Part shown: in pieces, positions 196 through 14,683 of the stretch
Layout of the letters: every line of letters starts with the position of its first letter
Numbering within the stretch: the first letter of the stretch is position 1
NCBI GenBank assembly: GCA_048941265.1
Contig: JBHLNT010000097.1
Location: 1 to 15,720, forward strand
Direction of reading: 5' to 3'
Length of the DNA: 15,720 nt
Source of the DNA: Promethearchaeota archaeon
GTDB lineage: Archaea > Asgardarchaeota > Lokiarchaeia > Sigyniarchaeales > SOKP01
Made by a program: the position numbers and the translations under genes
The notes under the pieces: generated by a model
What the model was told of the DNA's origin: nothing
Seen by the model: the letters and a program-made list of their open reading frames with translations, nothing else
Databases searched by the model: none

Positions 196-855
196 CTAAA
201 TTTTAAGAGATTTATTTTCTAATATTTCTACTTTTATACTGGGGTCTTTTTTGGCCATGAGTTCCTTATAATCATTCAAATTCTTGTCCCAATCTTGCCT
301 TTATATATGATTTATATATAAATTGTGCATTGGGATAAGAATTTCAGGTTTGATATCCAAAGCTGCCATACATGATTCTTCAAAATCCATGGTATAAGTT
401 CCCCCACAGGGCAGCATAGCTACAGTAATATCTTTTAGATCCTTCATTTCGGGTATTCTTTCAGTATCACCCGCGTGGTAGATGCGTTTTCCTTCAGTTT
501 CAATTATCATTCCTGCCCATTTACTACTCTGCGGATGTGTAGGTTTCTTTATTGTATATGATGGAACTAACTCAATTTTAATATCGTCCACTTCAAAAAC
601 TTCATGGAATTTTAGGCCTTTTCCATTAAATTTATCTAAATTTTTTGATATACTTTCGGGACCGATTAAAATTGTTGAATCTTTCATTAATTTTTTAATA
701 TCACCGCGTGAAAAATGATCTCCATGGGAATGTGAAGAAAAGATGATATCTGCTTTTTCTGCATCTCCGGGTACTTGATATGGATCCGTGTATATAACCT
801 TTCCACTTTCAGTTTTAATTTTAAAGCATGCGTGGTTTATCCAAAAAATTTCCAT
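196..855 (-). CDS. Metallo-beta-lactamase-fold metal-dependent hydrolase (UlaG/UPF0173-like), interrupted by a 30-nt intron; exons 855-324 and 293-196, 209 aa spliced
   Basis: Motifs HACF, TDP, SHSHGDH (HxHxDH), HAGDT, LPCGGTYTM and IPMH. The ORF track stops at TAA 303-301, but the same frame continues as WDKNLNDYKELMAKKDPSIKVEILENKSLKI to TAG at 198-196, which looks like the expected C-terminal helix and strand. Confidence 0.88.
294..323 (-). other. Predicted 30-nt bulge-helix-bulge intron in a protein-coding gene
   Basis: Minus strand: outer helix AAAUUCUU-a-UCCCAA (344-330) pairs with UUGGGA-c-AAGAAUUU (292-278); central helix UGCA/GGCA (3 bp plus A.G); bulges CA|A (325-323) and AG|A (295-293); 9-bp intron stem UUUAUAUAU/AUAUAUAAA with loop AAAUC. 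Contains an in-frame UAA. Confidence 0.85.
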
Positions 856-860
856 TCATT

Positions 861-867
861 TCACCTT
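861..867 (-). promoter_or_regulatory. Shine-Dalgarno site (AAGGTGA) of the MBL hydrolase gene
   Basis: Archaeal-type AGGTGA located 5 nt upstream of the ATG at 855. Confidence 0.6.
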
Positions 868-934
868 AATTGCTTTATAAAAAGATTTTTTTACTTATTT
901 TTAAGGCAAATAGTCATTTATAAGTTTCGTCATT

Positions 935-2746
935 TTAATTTTGAATCGGTTTTTTTTTCTTCAAAATTTCTAAACGGAGATTTTTAGCATCTTCAAAATT
1001 AGGATTGATTTCAAGACAACGAGTACAAATATCAAGAGCATTATCGAGACGATTTAACTTTAAAAATAATTTTGCTATATTATACCAGGCCTTACTATAA
1101 TTGGAATCAAGGTCTATGGATCTCTTAAAGAAATTCTTTGCTTGATCATAATCTCCAATATTAAAATATGCTAAACCAAGATCATTCCATAATATCGCGT
1201 TTTTGGGATTAAGCTCCAAAGCGTTTTTGCAGGCATAGATTGCTTTATTATATTCTCCTTTTTCATTATAAGCATAAGTGAGATATTCCCATCCCGCTAA
1301 GAATGTCGGATCTCTCTCTAAAGCTTGTTTATAGGATTTAATTGCTTGCTCTATATTGCCCGTCATTTTATAGGAATAACTTAACTTTTTCCAAGATTCA
1401 ATGGAGTTATTATCTATTGCTAGGGATTTATTAAAGATCTCAATTGCTTTATCATATTCATTAATTTCGGCGTAAATATTCCCAAGTTTATTTAATATTT
1501 CCATATTATTCGGATTTATTTCTAATGCTTTTTTATATGCATGAATCGCTTGTTCATAATCTTTTTCCTCAACATAAATATCACCAAGGGTTTTCCAAGG
1601 AATGATGTTATTTGGTTCAATTTCTAATGCTTTCTTATAGGCATCTTTAGCTTTTATATTATTCTTCTTCACTTGATAGAGATCCCCAAGAAAAATCCAA
1701 GATTTTTGATCATTTGGATTAATATCTACTGCTTTATTATAAGCAGCAATGGCTTTTTCATAGTTACTATCCAAAGTATATAAATTTCCTAAATTAATCC
1801 ATGCTTCTAAGAAGTTTGGATTTATTTCTATGGTTTTTTTATAAGCATCAATTGCATTTTTCAAATCATTTTTTCTTAAAAATATATTCCCCAGTTTATT
1901 CCAAGCTTCTACAAAATCGGAATTTACTTTTACTGCAGTTTTATATGTCTCAATTGCTTTTTCTAGATCATTTTTTTCATTATATACAGCACCCAACTCT
2001 TTCCATGCCTCTAAAAACTTCTCATCAATTTCTAAAACATTCTTATATGCATCTATTGCTTTCTTAAAATCTTTTAGTTTTCTATATGTAGAACCGAGAT
2101 TATTCCAAGCATTTAGAAATTTTGAATCAATTTTAATAGCTTTTTTAAAAGCGATTACTGCTTTATTTAATTCATTATTCTCTTTATATACTGTTCCTAA
2201 ATTATTCCATGCATCTATAAAATCTGAACTAATCTCTAAAGCTCTTTTAAATGCTTCAATGGCTTTATTTGGTTCATGAATGTTTTTATATACCAATCCA
2301 AGATTATTCCACGCCTTAATATATTTTGGATCGATATCAACTGCTTTAAGAAATGTCTCAATTGCCTCATTAAACAGTCCTGTGTCTATATATGACAATC
2401 CAAGATTATTTAATGCCTCTAAAAATTTAGGATTGATTTCCAAGACCTGCTTATATGCATTTATTGCATTATCAAATTCTTTTTTCTCAAAATAATGATT
2501 TGCATGATTAATAGCTAAAAATAATTTCAGCTCTTTAGCTCTTTTAATATATTCTTCAATCTTTTTTTCAGATCTCTCAGTTAATATCGGATTTCTATTA
2601 ATATTATTAAATTGCATTAACTTTTCGGCAGCAGCAAGATATTTCTTTATCGCTTGTTGATATTCATTATTTTTATCATGAACCAGAGCCTCATTTGCAT
2701 CGTTAATTGCATCTTTAAATAATTTTGAAATATCCATTTTTAACAT
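935..2746 (-). CDS. MIT-domain plus tetratricopeptide-repeat protein (about 15 TPRs); start may be the ATG at 2737
   Basis: 34-aa repeats of the form AWNNLG..Y......KAI.A(Y/F)KKA.EI(N/D)P. Residues ~9-74 align without gaps to the MIT domain of the Vps4 encoded in this window. Confidence 0.9.
   Translation of the reverse strand: MLKMDISKLFKDAINDANEALVHDKNNEYQQAIKKYLAAAEKLMQFNNINRNPILTERSEKKIEEYIKRAKELKLFLAINHANHYFEKKEFDNAINAYKQVLEINPKFLEALNNLGLSYIDTGLFNEAIETFLKAVDIDPKYIKAWNNLGLVYKNIHEPNKAIEAFKRALEISSDFIDAWNNLGTVYKENNELNKAVIAFKKAIKIDSKFLNAWNNLGSTYRKLKDFKKAIDAYKNVLEIDEKFLEAWKELGAVYNEKNDLEKAIETYKTAVKVNSDFVEAWNKLGNIFLRKNDLKNAIDAYKKTIEINPNFLEAWINLGNLYTLDSNYEKAIAAYNKAVDINPNDQKSWIFLGDLYQVKKNNIKAKDAYKKALEIEPNNIIPWKTLGDIYVEEKDYEQAIHAYKKALEINPNNMEILNKLGNIYAEINEYDKAIEIFNKSLAIDNNSIESWKKLSYSYKMTGNIEQAIKSYKQALERDPTFLAGWEYLTYAYNEKGEYNKAIYACKNALELNPKNAILWNDLGLAYFNIGDYDQAKNFFKRSIDLDSNYSKAWYNIAKLFLKLNRLDNALDICTRCLEINPNFEDAKNLRLEILKKKKPIQN
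990..2520 (-). repeat. Degenerate 102-bp coding tandem repeats (TPR units)
   Basis: Recurrent plus-strand motif resembling ttattcca(a/t/c)gc at about 102-nt spacing (near 1795, 1897, 2100, 2203, 2305). Boundaries are approximate. Confidence 0.7.
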
Positions 2747-2823
2747 TAAAATAAACTGACTTATAATGATATAAAAATTAAAAACAGACTATATAATATT
2801 ATTTCAGTCCAAATATTAAAAAA

Positions 2824-3198
2824 TCAATCCTTATCTTCTATCTTCCATTCTGGACTGGCTAAAGTACTTATTTTTGAAATATTTAATATTTCTGATTTTG
2901 ATACTTCAATCTGACCCAATCTTTCTTCTAACATTTTATTTTCAAAATTGGGTAATTCATTTAACAAATTAGGCGTTGAAATTATATTTATTGGAGTTTT
3001 GTGAGAATCAGACAAATTAGGTTTTGTTTCATTTATGAAATTTTCATTTTCCTTCTTATATAATCTAAAAAATGGAGCTTCTGGTTTTAATGGATTGAGA
3101 TATAGCTCACTTACTTTAGAGGGATTTTTTGGCAAAGAAAATCTCATAATACGACAAGATGGACAATTAATCTCATCAAGTCCGTGGATACATGGCAT
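2824..3198 (-). CDS. Small hypothetical protein with N-terminal CxH-x7-CxxC putative zinc site
   Basis: Begins MPCIHGLDEINCPSC; 124-aa ATG-started ORF filling the gap in the same orientation as its neighbours. Confidence 0.75.
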   Translation of the reverse strand: MPCIHGLDEINCPSCRIMRFSLPKNPSKVSELYLNPLKPEAPFFRLYKKENENFINETKPNLSDSHKTPINIISTPNLLNELPNFENKMLEERLGQIEVSKSEILNISKISTLASPEWKIEDKD

Positions 3199-3483
3199 TG
3201 TTAATCTTTTTTTAGTTTTGACTAAATTATTTATTCTTATAAATTAATATCTTCTTTTATTCTTTTTTATAATTTGATATTACATCTTGTTTTAAATTAG
3301 GTTAAATTTCAAAATTTTATCAAAATTTTTTAATCTATAAACTATGTTAATCCACATTGCGTACGACAAAATAATAAATTAGGAATCTAAATGTATATAT
3401 TGAAATAAGAGAATTAAAAATCATAAGTTTATTATTTATAGCAAATTTAATCTTTCACAATTCATTAGGACATTTAATAAATT

Positions 3484-4620
3484 ATGACTAAAGGTATAAT
3501 CTTATCTGGAGGTTGGGGTACTAGATTACGCCCACTCACTTGCACGATACCAAAAACCTTAATACCTGTGGTTAATAAACCTGTAATTGAACGGCAAATA
3601 CTTCTATTAAAGAGTGCAGGAGTAAAAGAATTAGTTCTTGCCGTAAGTGTAATGGGAGATGCATTAAAATATTATTTTAAAGATGGAGAAAAACTTGGAC
3701 TTAAAATTCATTATACTAATGAAAAAAATCCAATGGGAACTGCGGGAGCAATTAAATTAGCTGAAGATTTTTTAATAGATGACAATTTTTTCATGCTAAA
3801 TGGCGATGTCATATTAAATTTTGATTTTAAGGAAATGTTAGAATTTCATGAACATTCAAAAGGTATAGGAACAATAGCAAGTAAGATTGTTGAGAACCCA
3901 TCTAGATATGGAGTTTTAATAGTTGAAGAAAAATCCAAAAAAATCTTGAAGTTTCAAGAAAAGGAATTATTTACCTCTTTAAATGGTAAGCAAATTCCTA
4001 TGCCTATTAATGCAGGCGTCTATATCTTAGAGCCTGAGGTATTTTCTCACATTAAACCACATAAAAAGGTGTCAATTGAGAGAGAAATTTTCCCTCAACT
4101 TGCAAGTAATGGAAGATTATACCATTTTTCGATATCTGGAATTTGGAAAGATATTGGTAAGCCTGAAGAATTGTTGGAGGGTAATTTCCTCTTAATGCAA
4201 GATATTATAAAAAATCTAAAAGAAAAAAGAAATAACTTGATTGATGAAACTGTGAAATTAGAGGGAAAGGTTTTAATTTATCCTCCAGTTACCATTGGTC
4301 AGGATGTTGTAATTAGAAATAATTGTATTATTGGTCCTAATGTTGTAATTGGAGATAATGTCTACATTGATAAAAACACTGAAATTAAAGAATCATTAAT
4401 TTATAATGAAACTTATATTTCAAAATACGTTAAAATAGAAAAATCCATTATTTCTGATAATTGTCATATTCATGATGGTGCTATTTTAAAAGGTAATGAA
4501 CAAAATTTAGTAATTCTCGCCTCATATGTACACATATTAAAAAATATTAAACTTAATGCTTCCAAGACAGGTTCTATTTCTATTTGCCATCATGAAATAA
4601 TAAAAAGAGATATAAAATGA
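3484..4620 (+). CDS. NDP-sugar pyrophosphorylase (mannose-1-phosphate guanylyltransferase/GCD1-like) with C-terminal left-handed beta-helix
   Basis: ILSGGWGTRLRPLT..PK signature, GTAGAIK, LNGDV, INAGVY, WKDIGKP, then hexapeptide repeats (IGQDVVIRNNCIIGPNVVIGDNVYI). Confidence 0.92.
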   Translation: MTKGIILSGGWGTRLRPLTCTIPKTLIPVVNKPVIERQILLLKSAGVKELVLAVSVMGDALKYYFKDGEKLGLKIHYTNEKNPMGTAGAIKLAEDFLIDDNFFMLNGDVILNFDFKEMLEFHEHSKGIGTIASKIVENPSRYGVLIVEEKSKKILKFQEKELFTSLNGKQIPMPINAGVYILEPEVFSHIKPHKKVSIEREIFPQLASNGRLYHFSISGIWKDIGKPEELLEGNFLLMQDIIKNLKEKRNNLIDETVKLEGKVLIYPPVTIGQDVVIRNNCIIGPNVVIGDNVYIDKNTEIKESLIYNETYISKYVKIEKSIISDNCHIHDGAILKGNEQNLVILASYVHILKNIKLNASKTGSISICHHEIIKRDIK

Positions 4621-4656
4621 TTTTACAGTTTAGATTTTAATAATTATTTATTTTTT

Positions 4657-5265
4657 TTAGTTATTTTTCTCTTTAAATTTTTCAGCAATCAATTCCAAAT
4701 AGGATTTTCTTATGGAATCTTCTCGTTCTATACCAAATTGGCTTAAAAAGCTGAATAAAATATCTCTAGCGTTATCTAACTCATCATCAGTATCTACTTG
4801 CAATTCAACCTCAATAAAGTACTCTTTTAAAATGGGGATATAATCTATTAATGCTTCCACCAAATATTCTTTATAATTGAATTCATATAACTCTCTCTCT
4901 TTCTTTACGGTAAATATTTCTCTAAATCCTAATGATTTTAATATCAGTTTTAATTGTATACCATCACTAATTATGACTTCTAATTCATTGCGAGATTTAG
5001 TTAATGAATCTAGCTTTTTTCCCTTATAAGTTAAATAATACTTAATAATTCTCTTTTCTAAATCATTAATATCTTCTTGAAATTCGATAGATTTTCGAAT
5101 CCGTAGTGCTTCATCAGTTTTTTTAAAATCTCTTAATTCTATTGGCATATTAAAATATGTATCTTCATGCAATAATGAAAACTTATGAATACCATTCGAA
5201 TCTTCGAATTTTTTTCTCAAATCATCAGGATTTGAAACTTTAGCTTTAATTTCAACTTCGATCAG
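4657..5265 (-). CDS. cyaB: CYTH-domain protein (class IV adenylate cyclase/CyaB-like triphosphate tunnel metalloenzyme)
   Basis: Extending the track ORF upstream recovers the ExExK signature (IEVEIKAKV). Also HEDTYF, ALRIR, LTYKG, SRNELE, LGF...VKKER, FIEVE and RKSYLEL. Probable CTG start at 5265. Confidence 0.88.
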   Translation of the reverse strand: MIEVEIKAKVSNPDDLRKKFEDSNGIHKFSLLHEDTYFNMPIELRDFKKTDEALRIRKSIEFQEDINDLEKRIIKYYLTYKGKKLDSLTKSRNELEVIISDGIQLKLILKSLGFREIFTVKKERELYEFNYKEYLVEALIDYIPILKEYFIEVELQVDTDDELDNARDILFSFLSQFGIEREDSIRKSYLELIAEKFKEKNN

Positions 5266-5411
5266 GTAAAAGTCACTTTTTTATTTTTGATATGAATAGT
5301 AATTAACGATTTAATATTAATTAACAATTAAGATATTATAAGCATATCAATTTGAGCTGAAAATATATTAATATACAGGAACTTGCAAAGAAATATGGCT
5401 ATTTACCATAT

Positions 5412-6317
5412 ATGGTTGAAAGATATGTTGATTTTTTAGGTATGGATGAAACTATAAAACTTTTAGAAGCGAATGAGCTTCCCTTAACTCCTTCAATCAG
5501 AGTTAATACATTAAAAATAGAGGTTAATGAGTTAAAAAAAAGATTAGAAAATAAGGGTTTTAAATTAGAACCAATAGAATGGATACCATATGGTTTTAAA
5601 GTTCTCGAAGAGCCACTTAAATTAGGTTCGCTCCATGAATTTTTACAAGGTTATTTTTATATACAAAACACCGCTTCTATGCTCCCTCCAATTATTTTGG
5701 AACCAAAACCGAATGAAACAGTAATTGATATGTGTGCCGCGCCTGGAGGTAAGTCAACCCATTTAGCCCAGATTATGAATAATAAAGGAAAATTAATTTT
5801 AATAGAAAGGAATCAAAAAAGAATCCCTGCCTTAGAAATCAATATAAGAAGAATGGGAATCAAGAATTCGATAGTTCTTAATTTTGATGCCATACATATT
5901 TCTAAATTAAACGTTAAAGCTGATAAGATCCTATTAGATGCTCCCTGTACAGGGGAAGGTTTGATTAGAGAGGATAAACACAGAAAAAAAAGTAAAAATA
6001 TAAATGATATTAATAAAATGGCTTCTATTCAGAAAAAACTATTAAAAGCGGGTTTAAATTCATTAAAAACAGGAGGGTTATTACTTTATAGCACATGTTC
6101 TATAGCACCTGAGGAAAATGAGATAGTAATCAATGAAGTAATTCAAAATAATCCTAAATTTTCAATAGTAAATATAAATAATCAATATGGGGCAAATGGA
6201 CTTACTAAAGTATATGAATATCTCTTAGATAATCAATTAGAACATTCACAAAGAATCTATCCACATCTTCATGATACAATTGGATTTTTTATTTGCCTTA
6301 TTACGAAAATAGACTAA
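5412..6317 (+). CDS. NOL1/NOP2/Sun-family RNA cytosine-C5 methyltransferase; true start probably ~15 codons upstream (5367)
   Basis: IRVNTLK, G.FYIQ..ASM, DMCAAPGGKS, LLDAPCTGEG and YSTCSIAPEENE (both catalytic Cys present), GFFI. Confidence 0.93.
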   Translation: MVERYVDFLGMDETIKLLEANELPLTPSIRVNTLKIEVNELKKRLENKGFKLEPIEWIPYGFKVLEEPLKLGSLHEFLQGYFYIQNTASMLPPIILEPKPNETVIDMCAAPGGKSTHLAQIMNNKGKLILIERNQKRIPALEINIRRMGIKNSIVLNFDAIHISKLNVKADKILLDAPCTGEGLIREDKHRKKSKNINDINKMASIQKKLLKAGLNSLKTGGLLLYSTCSIAPEENEIVINEVIQNNPKFSIVNINNQYGANGLTKVYEYLLDNQLEHSQRIYPHLHDTIGFFICLITKID

Positions 6318-6428
6318 TTTTGTGTTATAAATAAAAAATTAGCTAAATAAAAATAGATTTAAATTCAAGATCTTATATACATAATTTACAAAAATTTTTT
6401 TTAAAAATAATTTTAGCAGGGAATAGAT

Positions 6429-8879
6429 ATGAATTTGAAAAAAAATACATATGTAGCTTTTTTTTTTCTTATCTCAATGATATTATCTTCTATGATTTCA
6501 TTAAATTTTATCAACGTTGCTGCAGATGAGGGGGGAGGTCCTCCATATATGGACTGGGATGTCAAACCTGATCCCCCAAATGATAAATGCTATTGGGATT
6601 TTAATAATGGAACATTAGTTGGCTGGCATATATCGGGAGATATTGGCAACAGAGATTTTATATATAATATAACAAGCATGAGATATCTGAAGAACATATT
6701 ACCTGAAGGACATGCATATGGTGTTCTTTTACAAGAAGTATATTATGATATGGTGAATAGAGAAATAAAAGCTTATCCTGAATCATCTGATCATCCAATA
6801 GTAAATGCATCTTTAACAAATTTCACTTTAGGTCGTATTTATCCATGTGATCCATATGTACCTTCGTATAATTTGGCCAATTATTTCATTCCCAAGAATG
6901 ATACTACTGGAAATCCTCTCACTATTGCTTGGAGTGCCAATGCTTTAAGTCATTATTATGGTTGGATGCTTTCTAATTATACATCGGATATATGCGATGT
7001 AATATATTATGGGAATACTATTGAACTATATAATTCAACTGAAGGAACTTATGTAAATCTAACTTATGATAGTCATGGAATTTTGATCGATGGAAAACTT
7101 AAGGTATATTTTGGAGGTCCTAATGATCGTGCTGCTCCTAAAATAGTTAATTATTCACGAGTTTATAATTTCCAGAAGGATTGGGATCTCACACTAGGTG
7201 ATAAAGTCGGTTGGCATCTGAGTGGTGATTTCGGACCTGGAGTTGAATCTGACTTAATATATAATATTACAAAAATCGATTACTTCTTCAACGCAACTGG
7301 GCATGATATATATGGTAAGGAACCTTATCATTATGGTGTTAGTTTAACTCCAATGATCTGGAATGTGAGTCTTAACACTTTGCAAATAGCGAATCTATCT
7401 ATAAATCCCATATTAAATGTTTCACTTGTAAACGTGACCTATTCCTTACTCGAGCCTTTTAGTCGTGATGTTGGAAGTGGTCTTGGACTCTTATGTAATC
7501 CTTTCATTCATAAGAATTCTTCTGGAATACTTGATATAGATTGGTGTGCTGAAGCAATGCGCCAATTTTATTCTCAATTTCTTATGGGTGGTGCTCAAAA
7601 GTATGCAAATATGCAAGTCTCAGGGAATTCAATTCTCTATACAAATGATACTGCTGAAGCATATTGTAGTTTGACTTATGATAACAATGGCATTTTAACT
7701 TATGGAGAACTCCATACAGATTTTCAAGGGCAAGGCATTCACACGGTTACTTATACCAGAATTTATGATTTTAATCCCTTAAATAATATTGATTGGACAG
7801 ATGAATTTGATCAAGTTGGAGAATCTATGATATATTATATGAACGAAACTAAGCTTAAATTTGATTTTATAAAGACAAATAACACTATGGAATACGATCT
7901 CGAGTTTGAGGATGGAGAATGGCGCGAAAATGTAAGATATTATCAACAGGTGTGGGCAAATTTTTCTACAGATGATGGTAGTGGTTGGAATTATGAAGGT
8001 ATTATAGCAATTGGTCAAGCAAATGAATATCTGCCCATAATTCTTGGAGGTGGTGACGGAGATGGTGGTCCTCTTCCGATATACCTAGTACCAAGCGGAA
8101 CTAATGGAGAAGACTTAGCAAAAGTATGGAAACCGTTAGTAGATTTTGGTCAACTACCTTTTGATGGACTTTTAAATGGTTCTAACTGGATTGAGTTCAT
8201 TGATAGTTCATTGGGAGATTATACCGTATTTAAATATTTTGCTGATGGAATGCTTCAATATATTTATTCTACAAATGGTTCAAAAAGTTTTATTTCACCC
8301 TATGGTGGTCCCACATTTATATATCCAGAGAATTATGTTGCAAACCTAACAGATTTAATTAAAGATACTGCTTTAGATTTTTCTTTCCAACCTTCAGGAA
8401 TGGCAAGTTTCAATGTTTCCATTCATATTAACATGACTGAGGATACAAAACTTGTTTTCACAGGTTTTAGTAAACAACCGATTCAGACCTCATTATCAAA
8501 TGCTTTATTTTATTTTGATATTTGGTTTAATAGGACTAATGTGGATTCATTATTAAGTGAACCAATAAATATTTCCGTCATTTACAAAGGCTCGACCAAA
8601 TACAGCAACATTAAAATATATTTTTATAATGAAACTTCTAAAGCTTGGGAATTAGTTAGTTTTTCACTAATTAATAATGTCTTTGAAATTTCTCTTACAC
8701 ATGCCTCCCTTTTTGCGTTTACTGGAGTAACCCCTTCTACTTTTCCAACAGGAGGAGGTGGAGGTGGAGGTGACAATAACAAAGAAAAGGAAGCTGCAAT
8801 ACCATTTGGAAACTATTATTTAATCTTCTTGGCTCTAGCTGTAATAGGATTAGTAATTTATAAAAAACGTAAATTATAA
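6429..8879 (+). CDS. Large secreted, membrane-anchored surface glycoprotein with ~200-aa internal repeats and a C-terminal sorting signal (Loki-CTERM-like)
   Basis: N-terminal signal peptide (basic residues then a hydrophobic stretch), many N-x-S/T sequons, Gly7 linker (8751-8771), then IPFG, a transmembrane helix and KKRKL. Confidence 0.85.
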   Translation: MNLKKNTYVAFFFLISMILSSMISLNFINVAADEGGGPPYMDWDVKPDPPNDKCYWDFNNGTLVGWHISGDIGNRDFIYNITSMRYLKNILPEGHAYGVLLQEVYYDMVNREIKAYPESSDHPIVNASLTNFTLGRIYPCDPYVPSYNLANYFIPKNDTTGNPLTIAWSANALSHYYGWMLSNYTSDICDVIYYGNTIELYNSTEGTYVNLTYDSHGILIDGKLKVYFGGPNDRAAPKIVNYSRVYNFQKDWDLTLGDKVGWHLSGDFGPGVESDLIYNITKIDYFFNATGHDIYGKEPYHYGVSLTPMIWNVSLNTLQIANLSINPILNVSLVNVTYSLLEPFSRDVGSGLGLLCNPFIHKNSSGILDIDWCAEAMRQFYSQFLMGGAQKYANMQVSGNSILYTNDTAEAYCSLTYDNNGILTYGELHTDFQGQGIHTVTYTRIYDFNPLNNIDWTDEFDQVGESMIYYMNETKLKFDFIKTNNTMEYDLEFEDGEWRENVRYYQQVWANFSTDDGSGWNYEGIIAIGQANEYLPIILGGGDGDGGPLPIYLVPSGTNGEDLAKVWKPLVDFGQLPFDGLLNGSNWIEFIDSSLGDYTVFKYFADGMLQYIYSTNGSKSFISPYGGPTFIYPENYVANLTDLIKDTALDFSFQPSGMASFNVSIHINMTEDTKLVFTGFSKQPIQTSLSNALFYFDIWFNRTNVDSLLSEPINISVIYKGSTKYSNIKIYFYNETSKAWELVSFSLINNVFEISLTHASLFAFTGVTPSTFPTGGGGGGGDNNKEKEAAIPFGNYYLIFLALAVIGLVIYKKRKL

Positions 8880-8893
8880 TTAAATAATTTTAA

Positions 8894-8903
8894 TTTTTTT
8901 TTT
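8894..8903 (+). terminator. Oligo-T putative archaeal terminator after the surface-protein gene
   Basis: T10 run about 15 nt after the stop codon, at a convergent gene junction. AT-rich background weakens the call. Confidence 0.35.
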
Positions 8904-9483
8904 ATTGTTTTATTCTCAAATAATACCCTTTATCTATTAGATTTAAGGCCACTAAATCATTTATTTTAAGAGTGGAATATCGGTCTTTATCGACTTGAGA
9001 TTGAGCAACAGAAATTAACTCATTTGATTGATTGAGAATTAATAAAAATTCAGATTTTTTTAGGTTTTCGGGAATTTTAGAAATAATCTCTTTTGTAATC
9101 CTATTTCCATATAAAACTGCTTTCTCACCCTTATCATTCACAATAATATAGTTTTTTTCAGAAAAAACATTCATTTGATATAAGAATTCTACTCCTTCTA
9201 AACTCATAAAAAAATTGCTCCGCTTTATAAAACCAACATAGATTCCCATTGAAATAATCGAAATTTCTGAACTAAAATTATTAATTATATCGTTTAAACA
9301 ACTAGGAACTAAATAAATAATGGGATATTTGGAATTAGGAAATAAATCATTAAAAGAAATAAAAAGTAGAAAATCTATTTCATTTAAGAGTGATAAAATT
9401 TTGGGTTCAATTTTTATAATTGATTTTGATATTATGGTCTTTTCAGTTTTATTGATAATTCTGAAATTATTATTACTATACAT
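8902..9483 (-). CDS. nip7: Nip7-like large-subunit ribosome biogenesis protein (PUA domain)
   Basis: GEKAVLYGNRI...LILNQSNELISVA...LIDKGYYLR matches the Nip7 pattern (E..FLYGN...D.G.YLR); also the SMGIYVG motif. Confidence 0.8.
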   Translation of the reverse strand: MYSNNNFRIINKTEKTIISKSIIKIEPKILSLLNEIDFLLFISFNDLFPNSKYPIIYLVPSCLNDIINNFSSEISIISMGIYVGFIKRSNFFMSLEGVEFLYQMNVFSEKNYIIVNDKGEKAVLYGNRITKEIISKIPENLKKSEFLLILNQSNELISVAQSQVDKDRYSTLKINDLVALNLIDKGYYLRIKQ

Positions 9484-9561
9484 GATGAAATAAGATAAAT
9501 AGAAATAAGATAATTATTTTATATTAATCAAGAAGATTATTAAAGATATAGGGTATGATAT

Positions 9562-10278
9562 ATGGGCATTAGAAAAATTGAAGACGAGATTGATTTAAAG
9601 GAAGCGATGAGAAAGAGAGCTGCCGAATTAAAAATAAAAGAAATCCAAGCTAAAGCATCAACAGAAAATTTAACAAAAGAGCGAATCAGAGAATTAGCTA
9701 AGAGACATGGGGTTATTTTAGCCTTAACTCCCGAATTAAAAAGCGAAGTGGAGTTGCTGCAAAAGAAGTACAATATTCCATCTTCAAAAATAATGACAGA
9801 ACAGATAACGGAAAATGATGTTTTGATAAAATTCTCTAAAATTGACCATCAAAAGTTAGGAATGCTGGCTTATCAACGAGTATTGATGAGGAAAGAGGAA
9901 ATAGGAGTAGGATTATTGCCTATTTCAGAAGTTTTCGATTTAGTTAATACCGGACTATTAAAAGGGATCGTTGAAATTAAGGATGTAATGAAAGCAATGA
10001 AAATTCTCAATAAAACAAACGTGATTGATGATATAAAAAAATTAGATTCGGGACTAATAATGATTCAATTTTTTCCAATTCAATATACTGTAGACCAGGT
10101 AAAATTAATTGAATTAGCTAAAAAAAGTGATTATCTTACAATAGAAAATGTATGTCTTGAATTCAAATGGTCTCAAGACCGCGCTATAAAAGTTCTGAAG
10201 TCTTTAGAAGATAGTGGGTTGGCAAAATTTAGTGAATCTCTTTTGAAAGGAAAGCAATGGTTTTTTCCCTCATTATAA
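9562..10278 (+). CDS. ESCRT-II Vps22/Vps36 (EAP30)-like winged-helix protein
   Basis: LG.....L.....G.GLL.I.EV, IQFFP.....DQ..LIELA....YLT......F.WS..RA..VL..L...GLA and terminal WFFPSL mirror the Vps22/SNF8 C-terminal winged helices; adjacent to Vps25 and Vps4. Confidence 0.85.
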   Translation: MGIRKIEDEIDLKEAMRKRAAELKIKEIQAKASTENLTKERIRELAKRHGVILALTPELKSEVELLQKKYNIPSSKIMTEQITENDVLIKFSKIDHQKLGMLAYQRVLMRKEEIGVGLLPISEVFDLVNTGLLKGIVEIKDVMKAMKILNKTNVIDDIKKLDSGLIMIQFFPIQYTVDQVKLIELAKKSDYLTIENVCLEFKWSQDRAIKVLKSLEDSGLAKFSESLLKGKQWFFPSL

Positions 10279-10283
10279 AATAA

Positions 10284-11195
10284 TTATTCAAGTTTTACCT
10301 TGAAAGCTATTTGCCCATCTTCCAATTTTATAATGTTTCCTCTGTCATCTTTAGATAAAATTCTAAATATTTCTTCCAAGTCAACTTTAGGAAGACTACT
10401 AAACTCTAATTTAGATTCCCTTATCTCATATATTAAGATGGGTTCTAACTTACCATTATCAATAGCCCATTCATATATATCATCGGCAAATAGATCTAAA
10501 GTTCTCCAGTAGATACGTAGTTGATCTTCTTTTTTAGACAAAAATTTAGCAAGTTCTTGATCGACTAATTCCAGCGCAATTTCATGTACCGCTTGTTTTC
10601 GATCCTCAAAGTTAGCAAACGGTTTTTCGGTATATAATTCTCTAAGATAAATAATATGAAGGATGGCACATTTGGCATAATCAAATAGAACTTTACTCCA
10701 TTCGGTTTTCCAAGATTGATAATCCGTAGGATTCTTTTTTTTATTAGGGATCGAATACATAAAAGCGTATTTTGGTTCTTCAATCCACGGGTGTTCATAC
10801 AATAATTTTTCATAAGGAGATAATTCTTTTTCAATAACCCCTTTTTCTCCAACTATCTCCTCTTCAAGTTTCTGAAGTTGAGATTCAATATAACTAGCAT
10901 TTTCAGTATAAGTAGCTTTATCCATTTGTTCGAATTGTTTCAGTAAATATTTATCAATATCATTTAAACGGGCTTCAATTTGTTCCAAATTACCCTTATA
11001 GATTTCCTCGGTTTTGAATGCCTCATCTTTTATGTCCAATGGAGCTTCTTTTAAAGCTTCTTGTTCTTTTAATTCTTTTTGTCTCTTTAGTTCTCTTAAT
11101 CTTTGAAGTTCTTTTCTAAGAACTTCGAGTTCTTTATCGGCAACTTTTTGAACTTCTTTTGATGTTTCCTCTGGTTTTTCTCTTTGTCTTTCCAT
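10284..11195 (-). CDS. vps25: ESCRT-II Vps25-like protein with N-terminal coiled-coil extension
   Basis: SWKTEWSKVLFDY, KPFANF, IYWRTLDLFADDIYEWA and LIYEI match Vps25 (W..LV..., IMWR.PEEW...IYQW..., TLYEL); lies 28 nt downstream of vps4. Confidence 0.85.
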   Translation of the reverse strand: MERQREKPEETSKEVQKVADKELEVLRKELQRLRELKRQKELKEQEALKEAPLDIKDEAFKTEEIYKGNLEQIEARLNDIDKYLLKQFEQMDKATYTENASYIESQLQKLEEEIVGEKGVIEKELSPYEKLLYEHPWIEEPKYAFMYSIPNKKKNPTDYQSWKTEWSKVLFDYAKCAILHIIYLRELYTEKPFANFEDRKQAVHEIALELVDQELAKFLSKKEDQLRIYWRTLDLFADDIYEWAIDNGKLEPILIYEIRESKLEFSSLPKVDLEEIFRILSKDDRGNIIKLEDGQIAFKVKLE

Positions 11196-11223
11196 GTTTC
11201 AATATTTTAGATTTTAATTTAAA

Positions 11224-12426
11224 TTATTCTCCATATTCATCTTTCCAATCTTCATATTGCTTTAAAATAGCTTTAGAAGTCATTGGTTTTACTCTTTTTA
11301 AGGTTTTTTTAAAGTCATTTAAGTTGACATCTCTCACTTTAACTTCTTTATCTGAATTGTCCAATAAACCACCCATATCTAACTCTCGGATTGGAAGCAT
11401 TATTACTTCTCGGCATACATTTGAGATATCTCTTCCGGAATAATTTTCAGTTCTAACCGCTAGTTCTATAAAATCCTCATCAGTTAGAGATGTATTTACT
11501 CCTGCGGTATGAATTTTAAAAATCCCTGCCCTTGCTGGTACATCTGGAAGTGGAACATATACTTTCTTTTCGAAACGTGAAAGCATGGCATTATCGAGAT
11601 CCCAAGGTCGATTAGTGGCTCCTAAAACAAGTAAAGGTTTATCATAAGTTGATTTTAGGCCTTGAATTTCACTTAAAAGCTGTGTTTTTACTCTCCTTTC
11701 ACCACCACTTTCAGCCCCATCCCCTCTCTTTGTAGCAACTGAATCAATTTCATCCATAAATATTAAGCTTGGTGCTTTCAATCTTGCGACTTTAAAGAGC
11801 GCACTGATTAACTTTTCACTTTCACCTAACCATTTACTTAACATATCAGCTGAAGATGCACTAAAAAAAGTTGCTTTACATTCAGTTGCAGCTGCTTTCG
11901 CGAGTAGTGTTTTTCCGCATCCTGGGGGCCCAAATAACAATATTCCTGACCAGGGTTTTCGCGCTCCTGTAAATAATTCTGGTTTTACCATAGGCAAAAC
12001 TATAGCCTCTCTTAAGGCTTGTTTACAATTTTCCAATCCTGCGATTTCAATCCATCTTACATTTGGAGATTCTGTAACTATTGTTCCTGAGATCATATCT
12101 AATAGTTCTTGCTCTTCATCACTCGCTCTATCTCCTTTATCTCCCTCAGTTTTATCAGCACTTTGTGCTGGAATACCTTTTCTTGCTCGAGCTCCTCCTA
12201 ACTTATACTGAATCTGTCTAGCTCTATCCATATATTCTTTAATACTTGTTTCACAGATTTCTTTCATTTTTGGGTTTTTCGTGTATTTCACAAACTGAAC
12301 TAAAATCTCAGCAGCCCTAATGTATTTATTCATCGCTTGTTGGAATTGACCTTGGGAATCGAGAGTTACTGCTTGTTGTGCCTCTTTTTTAGCATAAAGT
12401 AATAATTTCGAATCTGAAGATGACAT
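11224..12426 (-). CDS. vps4: Vps4 AAA+ ATPase (MIT plus AAA)
   Basis: N-terminal MIT, PNVRW.EIAGLE..KQALREAIVLP, RKPWSGILLFGPPGCGKT, SKWLGESEK pore loop, FMDEID Walker B, LGATNRPWDLD, YSGRDI, C-terminal YEDW...YG helix. Confidence 0.95.
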   Translation of the reverse strand: MSSSDSKLLLYAKKEAQQAVTLDSQGQFQQAMNKYIRAAEILVQFVKYTKNPKMKEICETSIKEYMDRARQIQYKLGGARARKGIPAQSADKTEGDKGDRASDEEQELLDMISGTIVTESPNVRWIEIAGLENCKQALREAIVLPMVKPELFTGARKPWSGILLFGPPGCGKTLLAKAAATECKATFFSASSADMLSKWLGESEKLISALFKVARLKAPSLIFMDEIDSVATKRGDGAESGGERRVKTQLLSEIQGLKSTYDKPLLVLGATNRPWDLDNAMLSRFEKKVYVPLPDVPARAGIFKIHTAGVNTSLTDEDFIELAVRTENYSGRDISNVCREVIMLPIRELDMGGLLDNSDKEVKVRDVNLNDFKKTLKRVKPMTSKAILKQYEDWKDEYGE

Positions 12427-12649
12427 ATGTATATATCAAAAAATTTATGATATTTATAACTAATCTAATCAGATATTTGTAATAATTATTTGTTTAAAAG
12501 AATATATCATATTATCCCTTAAAATTTTATAGATGAAAATTGGACTCCACTAAAAATATAATCAATTTGCTCCAGAATCAATATAATAAAATTTTATATT
12601 ATGAAATTTATACTATATATAATAAAAAAAATATTAATTATTGATAACA

Positions 12650-13276
12650 ATGGGATTTCTGAAAGATTTATCTGGATGGTTAAGTGGTGGAAGAAAGAAA
12701 GATACAATCAGAACTGTTACTGTGAGGCTTAAAGTCTTCAATAAAAGGTTGATGCGTCAGTCGAAAAAATTAGAAATGAGTGCAAAATTAGCTAAAGATA
12801 AAGCAGTACAACTTCGACGAGATGGAGACTTAGAGGGTTCCAAATTCCACGCAAGAAATTATCTTCAAGTTAAAAATCAAGCGAGAGCTGTAGATGCGTT
12901 TCGCACAAATTTAGAAGGATTGCAATTTAAGCTTGAAAATGCAGGAGCAGTAAAAGATGTTTCTGAAATATTAAAAGGTGTCGCAGTTGCGGTAGCGGGA
13001 ATCAAATCTCAATTATCTGTACCTCAAATTACTGAGCTGATGAAAAATATAGACTTAGATGTTGAGGATTTCGCAGTTGCTCAAGAAATAACTTCAGAAG
13101 GCATGACTGATATGAACCTTGATACTGCTGTTACAGATTCGCAAGTTGATGATTTTCTTGGTGAAATTGATGCCGAAATTGGAATAGAAACTGGTGTTGC
13201 TTTACCCTCTGCTGCAGGGGGTAGCCAAAAAATTAAAGAACTAGAAGAAGAATTAAACCGATTAAAAAATGATTAA
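12650..13276 (+). CDS. ESCRT-III Snf7-domain protein, Vps2/24/46 class (ATG 12650; alternative TTG 12641)
   Basis: Basic N-terminal helical hairpin (AK.KA.....GD.EG.K.HA.N), acidic C-terminal half (QVDDFLGEIDAEIGIE), C-terminal MIM1-like ELEEELNRLK; divergent from vps4. Confidence 0.9.
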   Translation: MGFLKDLSGWLSGGRKKDTIRTVTVRLKVFNKRLMRQSKKLEMSAKLAKDKAVQLRRDGDLEGSKFHARNYLQVKNQARAVDAFRTNLEGLQFKLENAGAVKDVSEILKGVAVAVAGIKSQLSVPQITELMKNIDLDVEDFAVAQEITSEGMTDMNLDTAVTDSQVDDFLGEIDAEIGIETGVALPSAAGGSQKIKELEEELNRLKND

Positions 13277-13372
13277 TTTTTTTCTTCACTAATATCTTTT
13301 TACTTAACCTTAAAAAAAGTCAAATTATTTTAGTTTGGATTCTATATTTATTTTATTAATTTTAAATGAATT

Positions 13373-14389
13373 GTGATAATTTTGAATCCAGAATTAATTA
13401 CGATTGGAAGTTGTACTCTTGATTGTATTATCCAAATCAAGGATATTTTAAGATTTGAGCTATTTGATAGAGAAATCGTGAAAAAGTATACTGCCATCGA
13501 ATACAGCAAGAAATTGAATATAGAAAACGTGAGGTTTGTTCCTGGAGGCTCTGGTGCAAATATAGCAGCAAATTGTGCAATGTTAGGATTGAGAACAACA
13601 TATATAGGAATTCTTGGAAACGATTTTTCTGCTGAAATTTGTTTAGATGATATGAAGATGAGAGGAGTAGATCTTTCTCAAATTAAACAGACAGATGAAG
13701 ATGGCACTGCTTTTTCAGTTATTTTAAGAACAGACTGGGGAAAAGATAGAAGTATTCTTGCCGCAAAAGGAGCAAATAATTTGCTACAACCTTCTGATAT
13801 TAAAGAAGAACTATTTGAAAATATTAAAGCTTTTGCTTGGACCTCACTTACAACTGAAAGCGGTTGCCAAGCAATTGAAAAAGCACTAACGCTGACAAAA
13901 AATAATGGAGGCAAAGTCTTTGCAGCGCCAAGTATGTCGATCATAAAAAATAATCCCAAATGGGCAAAAATTTTAATTTCAAATTCTGATGTCGTATCCT
14001 TAAATAGCGATGAGGCCCAGGAATTTACAGGGGAAAAGGATATACTTCATATGATTCATCACTTTCTTAAACTTGGGGTAGGACTGATCTCAATTACAGA
14101 TGGTCCAAATGGTTCAATTATTTCAGATGGAAAAGAAATCGTGAATAGCAATGTATATCAGGGAAAGGTCGAAGATACTACAGGAGCGGGAGATGCATTT
14201 TTAAGCGGCATACTAATTTCAACTTTAAATAATTTTTCTCTTCAAAAAACCTCGAAAATGGCAACTGCTATGTCATTCTTAGAATGCAAAGAAATAGGTG
14301 TAAGGGAAGGATTGCCAAATAGCCTTTCGGAATTAGAAGATTTTGTTAATAAAAATGAAATAAAACAAGTGATTTCCAAAGTTATATAA
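13373..14389 (+). CDS. PfkB/ribokinase-family carbohydrate kinase
   Basis: IGSCTLD, PGGSGANIA..CAMLG, GILGND, SLNSDEA, ITDGPNGS and DTTGAGDAFLSG signatures. Start is GTG 13373 or TTG 13382. Confidence 0.93.
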   Translation: MIILNPELITIGSCTLDCIIQIKDILRFELFDREIVKKYTAIEYSKKLNIENVRFVPGGSGANIAANCAMLGLRTTYIGILGNDFSAEICLDDMKMRGVDLSQIKQTDEDGTAFSVILRTDWGKDRSILAAKGANNLLQPSDIKEELFENIKAFAWTSLTTESGCQAIEKALTLTKNNGGKVFAAPSMSIIKNNPKWAKILISNSDVVSLNSDEAQEFTGEKDILHMIHHFLKLGVGLISITDGPNGSIISDGKEIVNSNVYQGKVEDTTGAGDAFLSGILISTLNNFSLQKTSKMATAMSFLECKEIGVREGLPNSLSELEDFVNKNEIKQVISKVI

Positions 14390-14474
14390 ATCCAAATAAA
14401 ATAAATCTTAGAATCATTAAATTTTAATTTCTTGATGTATTTTTAATTAACATTAAAACGCGCTCTTAGTATAG

Positions 14475-14502
14475 AGCTATTCATATACGGAATAGCGTAA
14501 AA
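14475..14502 (+). other. 28-nt tRNA intron at non-canonical D-loop position 15/16
   Basis: 7-bp stem GCUAUUC/GAAUAGC; 5' bulge AG|A; central GUAU/GUAA (3 pairs including U.G, plus G.A); 3' site AA|U with a weak outer helix (relaxed BHB). Excision keeps G15 for the G15-C48 pair. Confidence 0.8.
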
Positions 14503-14524
14503 TGGTCAGTATGCCAGGTTGCCA

Positions 14525-14552
14525 ATTCTTAACGATCTGTTAAAAAACAAAC
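14525..14552 (+). other. 28-nt tRNA intron at canonical position 37/38
   Basis: Outer helix is the anticodon stem CCAGG/CCUGG; central UUGC/ACAA (3 bp plus C.A); bulges CA|A and AC|A; intron stem UUcUUAAC/GUUAAaAA. Confidence 0.9.
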
Positions 14553-14683
14553 ACCTGGCGACCCGGGTTCAATCCCCGGAGGGCGCATCTATTTTCTTTT
14601 AAAAATTATACCCTTAAATAATGATTTAAATATTTCCTTTAAAGTATATTTCTTCTAATTAGTAAGGGATGAGTATTTAGAAC

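Follow-up and report, generated by a model that had tools for sequence, protein, structure and literature searches.

A 30-nt insert in a hydrolase gene is very likely a genuine mRNA intron that is removed by enzymes. It belongs to a group of introns of the bulge-helix-bulge (BHB) type, 28-38 nt long, which occur in protein genes of one family of Promethearchaeia (Loki). The gene is found on contig JBHLNT010000097.1 (assembly GCA_048941265.1, Promethearchaeota archaeon), which was analysed over its full 15,720 nt and is referred to as the window. It corresponds to contig C42 of a 5.0-Mb genome that is 91% complete. The reading as an enzyme-spliced intron is adopted because the insert can be folded into a BHB motif, because exact removal of such inserts restores proteins that are conserved, because the stem shows compensatory change, and because genes for the splicing endonuclease EndA and the RNA ligase RtcB are present. 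In total, at least 15 mRNA intron sites were found in six gene families.

The hydrolase intron

The first exon codes for a hydrolase of the metallo-beta-lactamase fold (Pfam Lactamase_B_3, E 2.8e-26) and terminates just past the PMH motif. The 30-nt intron (for coordinates of all features see Table 1) contains an in-frame TAA and is missing in intronless orthologues. The second exon lacks its own start codon and was overlooked by the calling of open reading frames (ORFs). Upon excision of the insert, the 184-aa frame becomes one of 209 aa, which equals the open-frame length in the intronless genomes G005 and G009 of the same genus. An unspliced message would run into the stop 7 codons into the intron and would lose the final 32 residues. 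The pN/pS ratio between this genome and G006 is 0.19 for the 32 codons of exon 2 and 0.18 for exon 1, so that exon 2 appears to be under purifying selection. The intron begins with AT and its loop reads AAAUC. Among 720 frame-repairing BHB-like matches in the genome the site is joint first, and by constrained energy it is second of 1947.

Of the first 30 orthologue loci, 28 are intronless, while two (this genome and G006) carry a 30-nt insert at the identical base. A family search for the hydrolase gave a match in 114 of 135 genomes, and at least 15 of the 114 have the same-site insert, a floor because only loci with a short open frame were fetched, four partial loci fell outside, and inserts without stop in longer frames are missed. 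The 13 additional carriers that were confirmed all belong to genus g11, and there is also a 29-nt version in a paralogue from G153. Pattern scans gave 60 matches, four of which are further 30-nt copies of the hydrolase site on metagenome contigs; the other 56, both viral matches among them, occur outside the hydrolase context.

When 15 copies of the intron are aligned, 93% of the cells pair. Five of the nine inner-stem pairs are altered on both sides, a value reached by none of 500 shuffles and compared to 0-2 in slid controls. G-U pairs are tolerated, as in RNA, and 13 of the 15 copies lack pairing at the fourth position of the central helix. Judged from this alignment, the fold appears to be maintained through compensatory change.

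The insert is not an assembly error, as contigs from runs X2 and X4 cross it without a gap. X2 stems from the same study as the possible source and X4 from a separate one; of the bridging X4 contigs, one is identical and another shows 16 differences in 248 nt. A contig from X3 (86% alike) spans the intron with only 22 nt on one side and was not counted as bridging, and X8 has no coverage at the intron.

All three introns of the window, this one and two in a tRNA-Gly(GCC) gene, fit the BHB class in relaxed form, with three of four central pairs and a weak exon helix for the D-loop intron. The class is defined by two 3-nt bulges on opposite strands with a 4-bp helix between them and a helix on either side. 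Their exact removal yields the 209-aa frame of the intronless orthologues and a 72-nt tRNA-Gly. The genome codes for two EndA paralogues and one RtcB. The 208-aa catalytic EndA subunit is nearest to PDB entries 3p1z, 3ajv and 2cv8, which are crenarchaeal enzymes, and it aligns over their extra loop with its lysine. An (alpha-beta)2 EndA that serves the tRNA introns would cleave each bulge behind its second base, and the exons would then be joined by RtcB. Extra loops of this kind accompany relaxed specificity (PMC12397907), and two EndA paralogues are usual in Asgard genomes (bioRxiv 10.64898/2026.10.13.758758).

Other classes of inserts do not fit. Group I and group II introns have a multi-domain ribozyme core of at least 100 nt and are ruled out by the single 30-nt hairpin (no Rfam search was made). 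A spliceosomal intron, which has GT-AG ends and a branch point, is contradicted by the AT start and by ends that vary across sites (spliceosome genes were not searched for). The possibility of a hairpin derived from a miniature inverted-repeat transposable element or an insertion sequence was dropped. Such elements leave near-identical copies at many loci with a target duplication of fixed size, whereas a genome search with covariance model R1 brought up no second copy and the boundaries can be slid by a variable 0-3 nt. None of the inserts contains an ORF for a homing endonuclease: 20 copies of the hydrolase site measure 29-30 nt, and 50 inserts in the gene for ribosomal protein uL11, from a search that admitted up to 90 nt, measure 28-38 nt.

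Inserts in other protein genes

The sequence-only reading had expected further mRNA introns, and these exist: this genome has six, counting the one in the hydrolase gene, and the family has many more. The five additional genes are uL11, acs, an acetoacetyl-CoA-synthetase-like gene, kce and an FAD oxidoreductase gene. In acs and the acetoacetyl-CoA-synthetase-like gene, a family search revealed internal stops, each caused by a 30-nt BHB insert, while the other three were identified by a structure scan together with orthologues. All five inserts are missing from intact orthologues, each splits a conserved motif, and two shift the frame. Counting this genome, same-site inserts occur in 5 of 30 loci for uL11, 3 of 22 for kce, 1 of 30 for the FAD oxidoreductase, 7 of 27 for the acetoacetyl-CoA synthetase and 4 of 30 for acs. 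With no bonus given for a start with A, the BHB register outscores the 12 alternative placements at every one of the 15 representative sites.

A scan by motif only produced 23,355 matches in this 30% GC genome, mostly noise. One candidate (C91:7219-7252) was dropped as it lies within an intact frame, and those on C157, C138, C113, C211, C219, C127 and C323 were dropped on reading as shadow frames, gene ends or operon junctions (without homology check). Ambiguous inserts were excluded from all counts (60 nt in acs of G001, 33 nt in L129, 75-78 nt in L108/C196, 21-36 nt in L231/L232). The acs gene of G001 (L205) has three clear inserts besides this 60-nt insert, which is in frame. The FAD oxidoreductase gene of G023 (L165) has two in-frame inserts without stops, which escape stop-based screens. 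The match to acs exon 2 in G009, G015, G023, G013 and G025 has one internal TAA that may be a natural stop.

The gene for uL11 gives a single match per genome here. An intact uL11 query was run over 331 genomes of the phylum, and 85 genomes of the family matched, of which 41 look intact, 37 were confirmed as interrupted, 3 have the gene at a contig edge and 4 are not listed. Spliced alignment that is blind to structure and admits inserts up to 90 nt placed the 50 inserts at four sites, spread over 36 genomes; the 4 control loci had none. Most of the inserts shift the frame (38 of 50), 43 have the full 4-bp central helix, and their BHB scores are 11.5-19 compared to 8.5-13.5 in exon controls. 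The four sites fall within 18 codons, and up to three are occupied in one gene. The uL11 genes of other Asgard families look intact among the matches listed (190 matches are outside this list). In G112, G074 and G154 (L340, L342, L347), three introns within 18 codons leave exons of about 20-30 nt, and the order of splicing may matter. Interrupted uL11 calls could distort completeness estimates and trees if uL11 serves as a marker.

The abundance of such introns was estimated from a sample that does not depend on the motif, consisting of proteins encoded on 40 stretches of DNA from the relatives G033 and G029, which were aligned to this genome. No BHB intron was found in 445 gene segments covering 406 kb, where introns common to this genome and the two relatives would escape; the same detector recovered all six known introns. 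For genes that are sufficiently conserved to be aligned, this sets an upper bound of about 0.7%, or no more than some 30 genes. In the six seeded families, however, there are 9 further sites in 211 kb aligned compared to none convincing in 189 kb of flanking genes, a comparison in which the genomes are not independent and the lower conservation of the flanking genes weakens detection. Thus, BHB introns are rare per gene yet recurrent in the same few genes. The sequence-only reading had suggested that they may be widespread, which holds for lineages and for a few genes but not per gene.

tRNA introns and the origin of the mRNA introns

With both inserts removed, ARAGORN recognizes a 72-nt tRNA-Gly(GCC), while it finds nothing in the raw window. 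Such a two-intron tRNA-Gly(GCC) is ordinary for Asgard archaea. Among the loci L268 (G009), L274 (G005) and L353 (G003), tRNA-Gly(GCC) genes of same-genus relatives have introns at positions other than those in the window, and a T-loop insert was seen in a tRNA-Gly(UCC).

It had been proposed from the sequence that the three introns of the window share one design and that introns spread from tRNA to mRNA. The individual features are as described: the introns have lengths of 30, 28 and 28 nt, start with A, form one hairpin each, and have a central helix of three pairs plus one mismatch involving A. This mismatch lies on the intron side in both the mRNA intron and the anticodon intron but on the exon side in the D-loop intron. 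In wider sets these features are common but not constant, so that a fixed design does not hold. The first base is A at 15 of 15 representative mRNA sites, in 31 of 50 uL11 inserts and in 7 of 12 tRNA introns; a complete central helix is present in 8, 43 and 5 of these, respectively. The tRNA set is a restricted one, since 12 of 24 automatic calls lay outside 25-31 nt and were dropped, and tRNAs with T-arm introns were missed. Common to both sets are a size of 25-38 nt, the single hairpin and A-rich bulges. The sequence A-N-Y-U-Y is present at the hairpin centre of 10 of the 15 mRNA sites (shuffle mean 2.4) compared to 1 of 12 tRNA introns, although this motif was picked after looking and the window's own mRNA intron does not fit it. 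A covariance model built from the 15 hydrolase introns proved to be site-specific: it detected no new intron in this genome (150 of 12,349 candidates scored) and gives other known sites at most 18 bits. As MAFFT failed to align different sites in register, no general covariance model was obtained.

None of the six mRNA introns matches any of the 12 tRNA introns beyond hairpin-preserving shuffles (p 0.14-0.99), which speaks against the proposed spread. As there is no sequence match and the loop motif is found mainly in the mRNA introns, mRNA and tRNA introns most likely share the enzyme and not a recent donor or ancestor. That one tolerant endonuclease serves both is plausible from the two EndA paralogues, one with a crenarchaeal-type extra loop, and from RtcB.

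How the introns come and go can be judged from their surroundings. The hydrolase intron requires 7 changes on a gene tree of 59 rows, 5 of them forced by strong branches, in a set where carriers are oversampled. Between G006, which has the intron, and its close relative G009, which has none, 0-2 of 30 bases differ upstream of the site compared to 4-6 of 30 downstream, and local divergence also rises at the acs and acetoacetyl-CoA synthetase sites. This jump fits replacement by DNA from a foreign species better than clean loss via a spliced copy. We lean towards the view that introns, once established at a site, come and go through recombination of DNA across species, whereby flanking exon sequence is replaced.

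Several points weigh against the reading as mobile, enzyme-spliced introns. The patchy tree could equally arise by repeated loss from an old intron. Exon 2 of the hydrolase offers just 32 codons, with synonymous sites close to saturation, and the covariation test is inflated by relatedness among the 15 aligned copies, 13 of which come from a single genus. The exon helix is weak in acs and at uL11 sites 16 and 33, and the inner stem is bulged at uL11 site 23. Motif scans barely beat decoy geometries (6 compared to 0-3, and 4 compared to 1-4), with a strict filter that was chosen after matches were seen, and thus the case rests on homology. Splicing itself is predicted from comparative evidence.

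The inserts could also stay in the message, either in pseudogenes, or with ribosomal read-through or bypassing, or by coding for working truncated proteins. Four of the six inserts in this genome are in frame, and the end codons match, as bypassing needs, in 14 of 15 hydrolase copies and in acetoacetyl-CoA-synthetase-like copies. Yet the end codons do not match in the window's copy or in uL11 and acs, the length varies within single sites (28-30 nt, 30-36 nt), the stops vary (TAA, TAG), and downstream exons remain conserved; the uL11 inserts are mostly frameshifting and mostly retain the complete central helix. We consider unspliced inserts highly improbable. Read-through, bypassing or decay may apply to one single gene but, as far as can be judged from sequence, would not account for uL11, a single-copy gene whose frameshifting inserts differ in length. 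If the introns are spliced, they might have been retained as regulatory switches, where the rate of splicing or a loop-reading protein sets the output of the gene. A regulatory role has been proposed for the intron in cbf5 (PMC2738675), the loop motif is kept across genera while stems diverge, and the same few genes are hit repeatedly. This is nevertheless improbable, since each intron is missing in close relatives and different sites of one gene come and go independently, apart from the loop motif having been chosen after inspection and being unmatched by the window's intron, and from the weaker detection in flanking genes.

If the mRNA introns had been copied from tRNA introns within the same cells, for instance through reverse splicing into anticodon-loop-like hairpins and subsequent reverse transcription, the shared size class and geometry would be accounted for. 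By geometry, mature BHB exons form a stem with a 7-nt loop, intron positions in tRNA-Gly(GCC) likewise turn over among relatives, and recurrence in uL11 and acs would suit abundant transcripts if their expression is assumed to be high. However, the sequence comparison and the loop motif separate the two sets, RVT_1 has no match in this 91%-complete genome, Goswami et al. saw almost no copying even among Asgard tRNA genes, and the replaced flanks indicate DNA donors. We regard this origin as unlikely, although an old transfer from tRNA to mRNA, since erased, is conceivable. A somewhat better but still minor chance is given to the introns being ORF-less relics or partners of homing endonucleases. 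The introns would then occupy conserved target sites of the nuclease, shield the allele from being cut and enter by break repair. Archaeal rRNA BHB introns bear such ORFs and have short deletion derivatives (PMC2738675); every site lies in a highly conserved motif, flanks are replaced near the sites, and a LAGLIDADG-like ORF is convergent with the intron-bearing acs. This ORF was missed by the family search of the genome, which gave no match for LAGLIDADG_1 and two for LAGLIDADG_3 on other contigs. In the flanks examined, no such ORF adjoins any of the five remaining introns, where the flank of the hydrolase extends for about 200 nt downstream before the contig ends, and ORF lists inspected by eye have none within 1.5 kb of acs in carriers G001, G005 and G006. 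There is no long ORF-bearing version among the 20 hydrolase-site copies, and four uL11 sites in 18 codons would require several nucleases. Homing is thus possible but not general, because the ORF adjoins acs only and no long ORF-bearing form was seen.

Surroundings, known systems and meaning

Upstream of the intron-bearing hydrolase gene there is directly a 603-aa TPR protein, the N-terminal 75 residues of which resemble, by eye, the MIT-like start of the window's Vps4. Vps4 is part of an ESCRT cluster that is expected for Asgard archaea. An 816-aa predicted surface protein has no Pfam match and shows apparent internal repeats, followed by a glycine run and a C-terminal hydrophobic tail.

Table 1 Features of the window (contig C42) and related features on other contigs.
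Feature	Position	Strand	Remarks
Hydrolase exon 1	324..855	-	metallo-beta-lactamase fold; 177 codons + 1 base
Hydrolase intron	294..323	-	30 nt; A, 9-bp stem, 5-nt loop, central-helix strand, 3' bulge
Hydrolase exon 2	196..293	-	32 codons including junction codon, plus stop
Complete BHB motif	287..335	-	6-bp exon-exon helix (330-335 with 287-292), 4-nt central helix, two 3-nt bulges
tRNA-Gly(GCC) gene	14460..14587	+	three exons; 72 nt spliced
D-loop intron	14475..14502	+	28 nt, following the 15th base; relaxed BHB, weak exon helix, exon-proximal mismatch
Anticodon intron	14525..14552	+	28 nt, canonical 37/38 position; BHB with intron-proximal mismatch
TPR protein	935-2746	-	603 aa
Predicted surface protein	6429-8879	+	816 aa
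ESCRT cluster	9562-13276		EAP30/Vps36-family, ESCRT-II, Vps4 and Snf7 genes
uL11 intron	C196:21625-21654		structure scan and orthologues
kce intron	C24:62031-62061		31 nt; structure scan and orthologues
FAD oxidoreductase intron	C184:26193-26223		31 nt; structure scan and orthologues
LAGLIDADG-like ORF	L068:1-1428 (= G000:C18:44-1471)	+	convergent with acs

A likeness without shown homology exists to the IRE1-XBP1/HAC1 system, which differs in having one regulated target and uses a different nuclease and recognition motif. There, too, a protein nuclease and an RNA ligase excise a short intron and restore the frame (PMC13149111; for RtcB ligation of XBP1, PMC11747266). Closest among archaea is the intron in cbf5 pre-mRNA of Sulfolobales and Desulfurococcales (Yokobori et al. 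2009, PMC2738675), which is also a short BHB insert (16-44 nt) in a conserved motif of a protein gene, is cut by a hetero-oligomeric EndA and was lost in some lineages. It differs in being one site in one gene that was gained once and in splicing having been shown by experiment. The introns described here, in contrast, are from an Asgard lineage and occupy at least 15 sites in six families with up to three per uL11 gene; they are patchy and probably lateral, and their splicing is inferred. In Haloferax volcanii, EndA likewise processes a BHB in the mRNA of HVO_1309, but this is located in the 5' untranslated region (UTR) and breaks no reading frame (PMC7714728); the same paper names cbf5 as the sole other mRNA case. 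Archaeal rRNA BHB introns with homing ORFs (PMC2738675) are alike in their BHB ends and in gain and loss at the strain level, but the hosts here are mRNAs and no ORF-bearing form was found at the hydrolase site. The tRNA-Gly gene of the window, with D-arm and canonical intron, missed by the tRNA finder and accompanied by a two-paralogue EndA, is an ordinary case of the Asgard multi-intron tRNA genes (bioRxiv 10.64898/2026.10.13.758758; PMC11291895); the main text of the former mentions neither "mRNA" nor "cbf5".

We found no report of mRNA BHB introns in Asgard archaea in the literature searched, which excluded most subscription journals and all supplements, and the archaeal mRNA cases found in print are cbf5 and the one Haloferax 5' UTR. 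Archaeal protein genes are treated as intron-free except for cbf5. The presence of at least 15 sites in six families, with uL11 interrupted in over four in ten genomes of one Asgard family, implies splicing of mRNA, for which the enzymes of tRNA splicing are probably used. Consequently, gene callers will cut short or break up genuine genes in this group. The many natural gain and loss events allow one to ask how BHB introns arrive, and an Asgard lineage is seen to tolerate introns in protein genes without having a nucleus. A link to the root of the eukaryotes, as raised by the sequence-only reading, is not shown, nor is descent of spliceosomal introns, given the different chemistry and a uL11 signal that seems restricted to one family among the matches listed.

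Tentatively, and although this is less likely than not, it may be suggested that this Lokiarchaeal family has its own mobile class of enzyme-spliced mRNA introns, with a shared pentaloop that is read by a factor, movement between species and pile-up in a few conserved genes. If this is true, mRNA splicing would be a routine and perhaps regulated step for a ribosomal protein and for central enzymes in an Asgard archaeon. It would also be an independent start of an intron-bearing set of protein genes, built on the chemistry of tRNA splicing.

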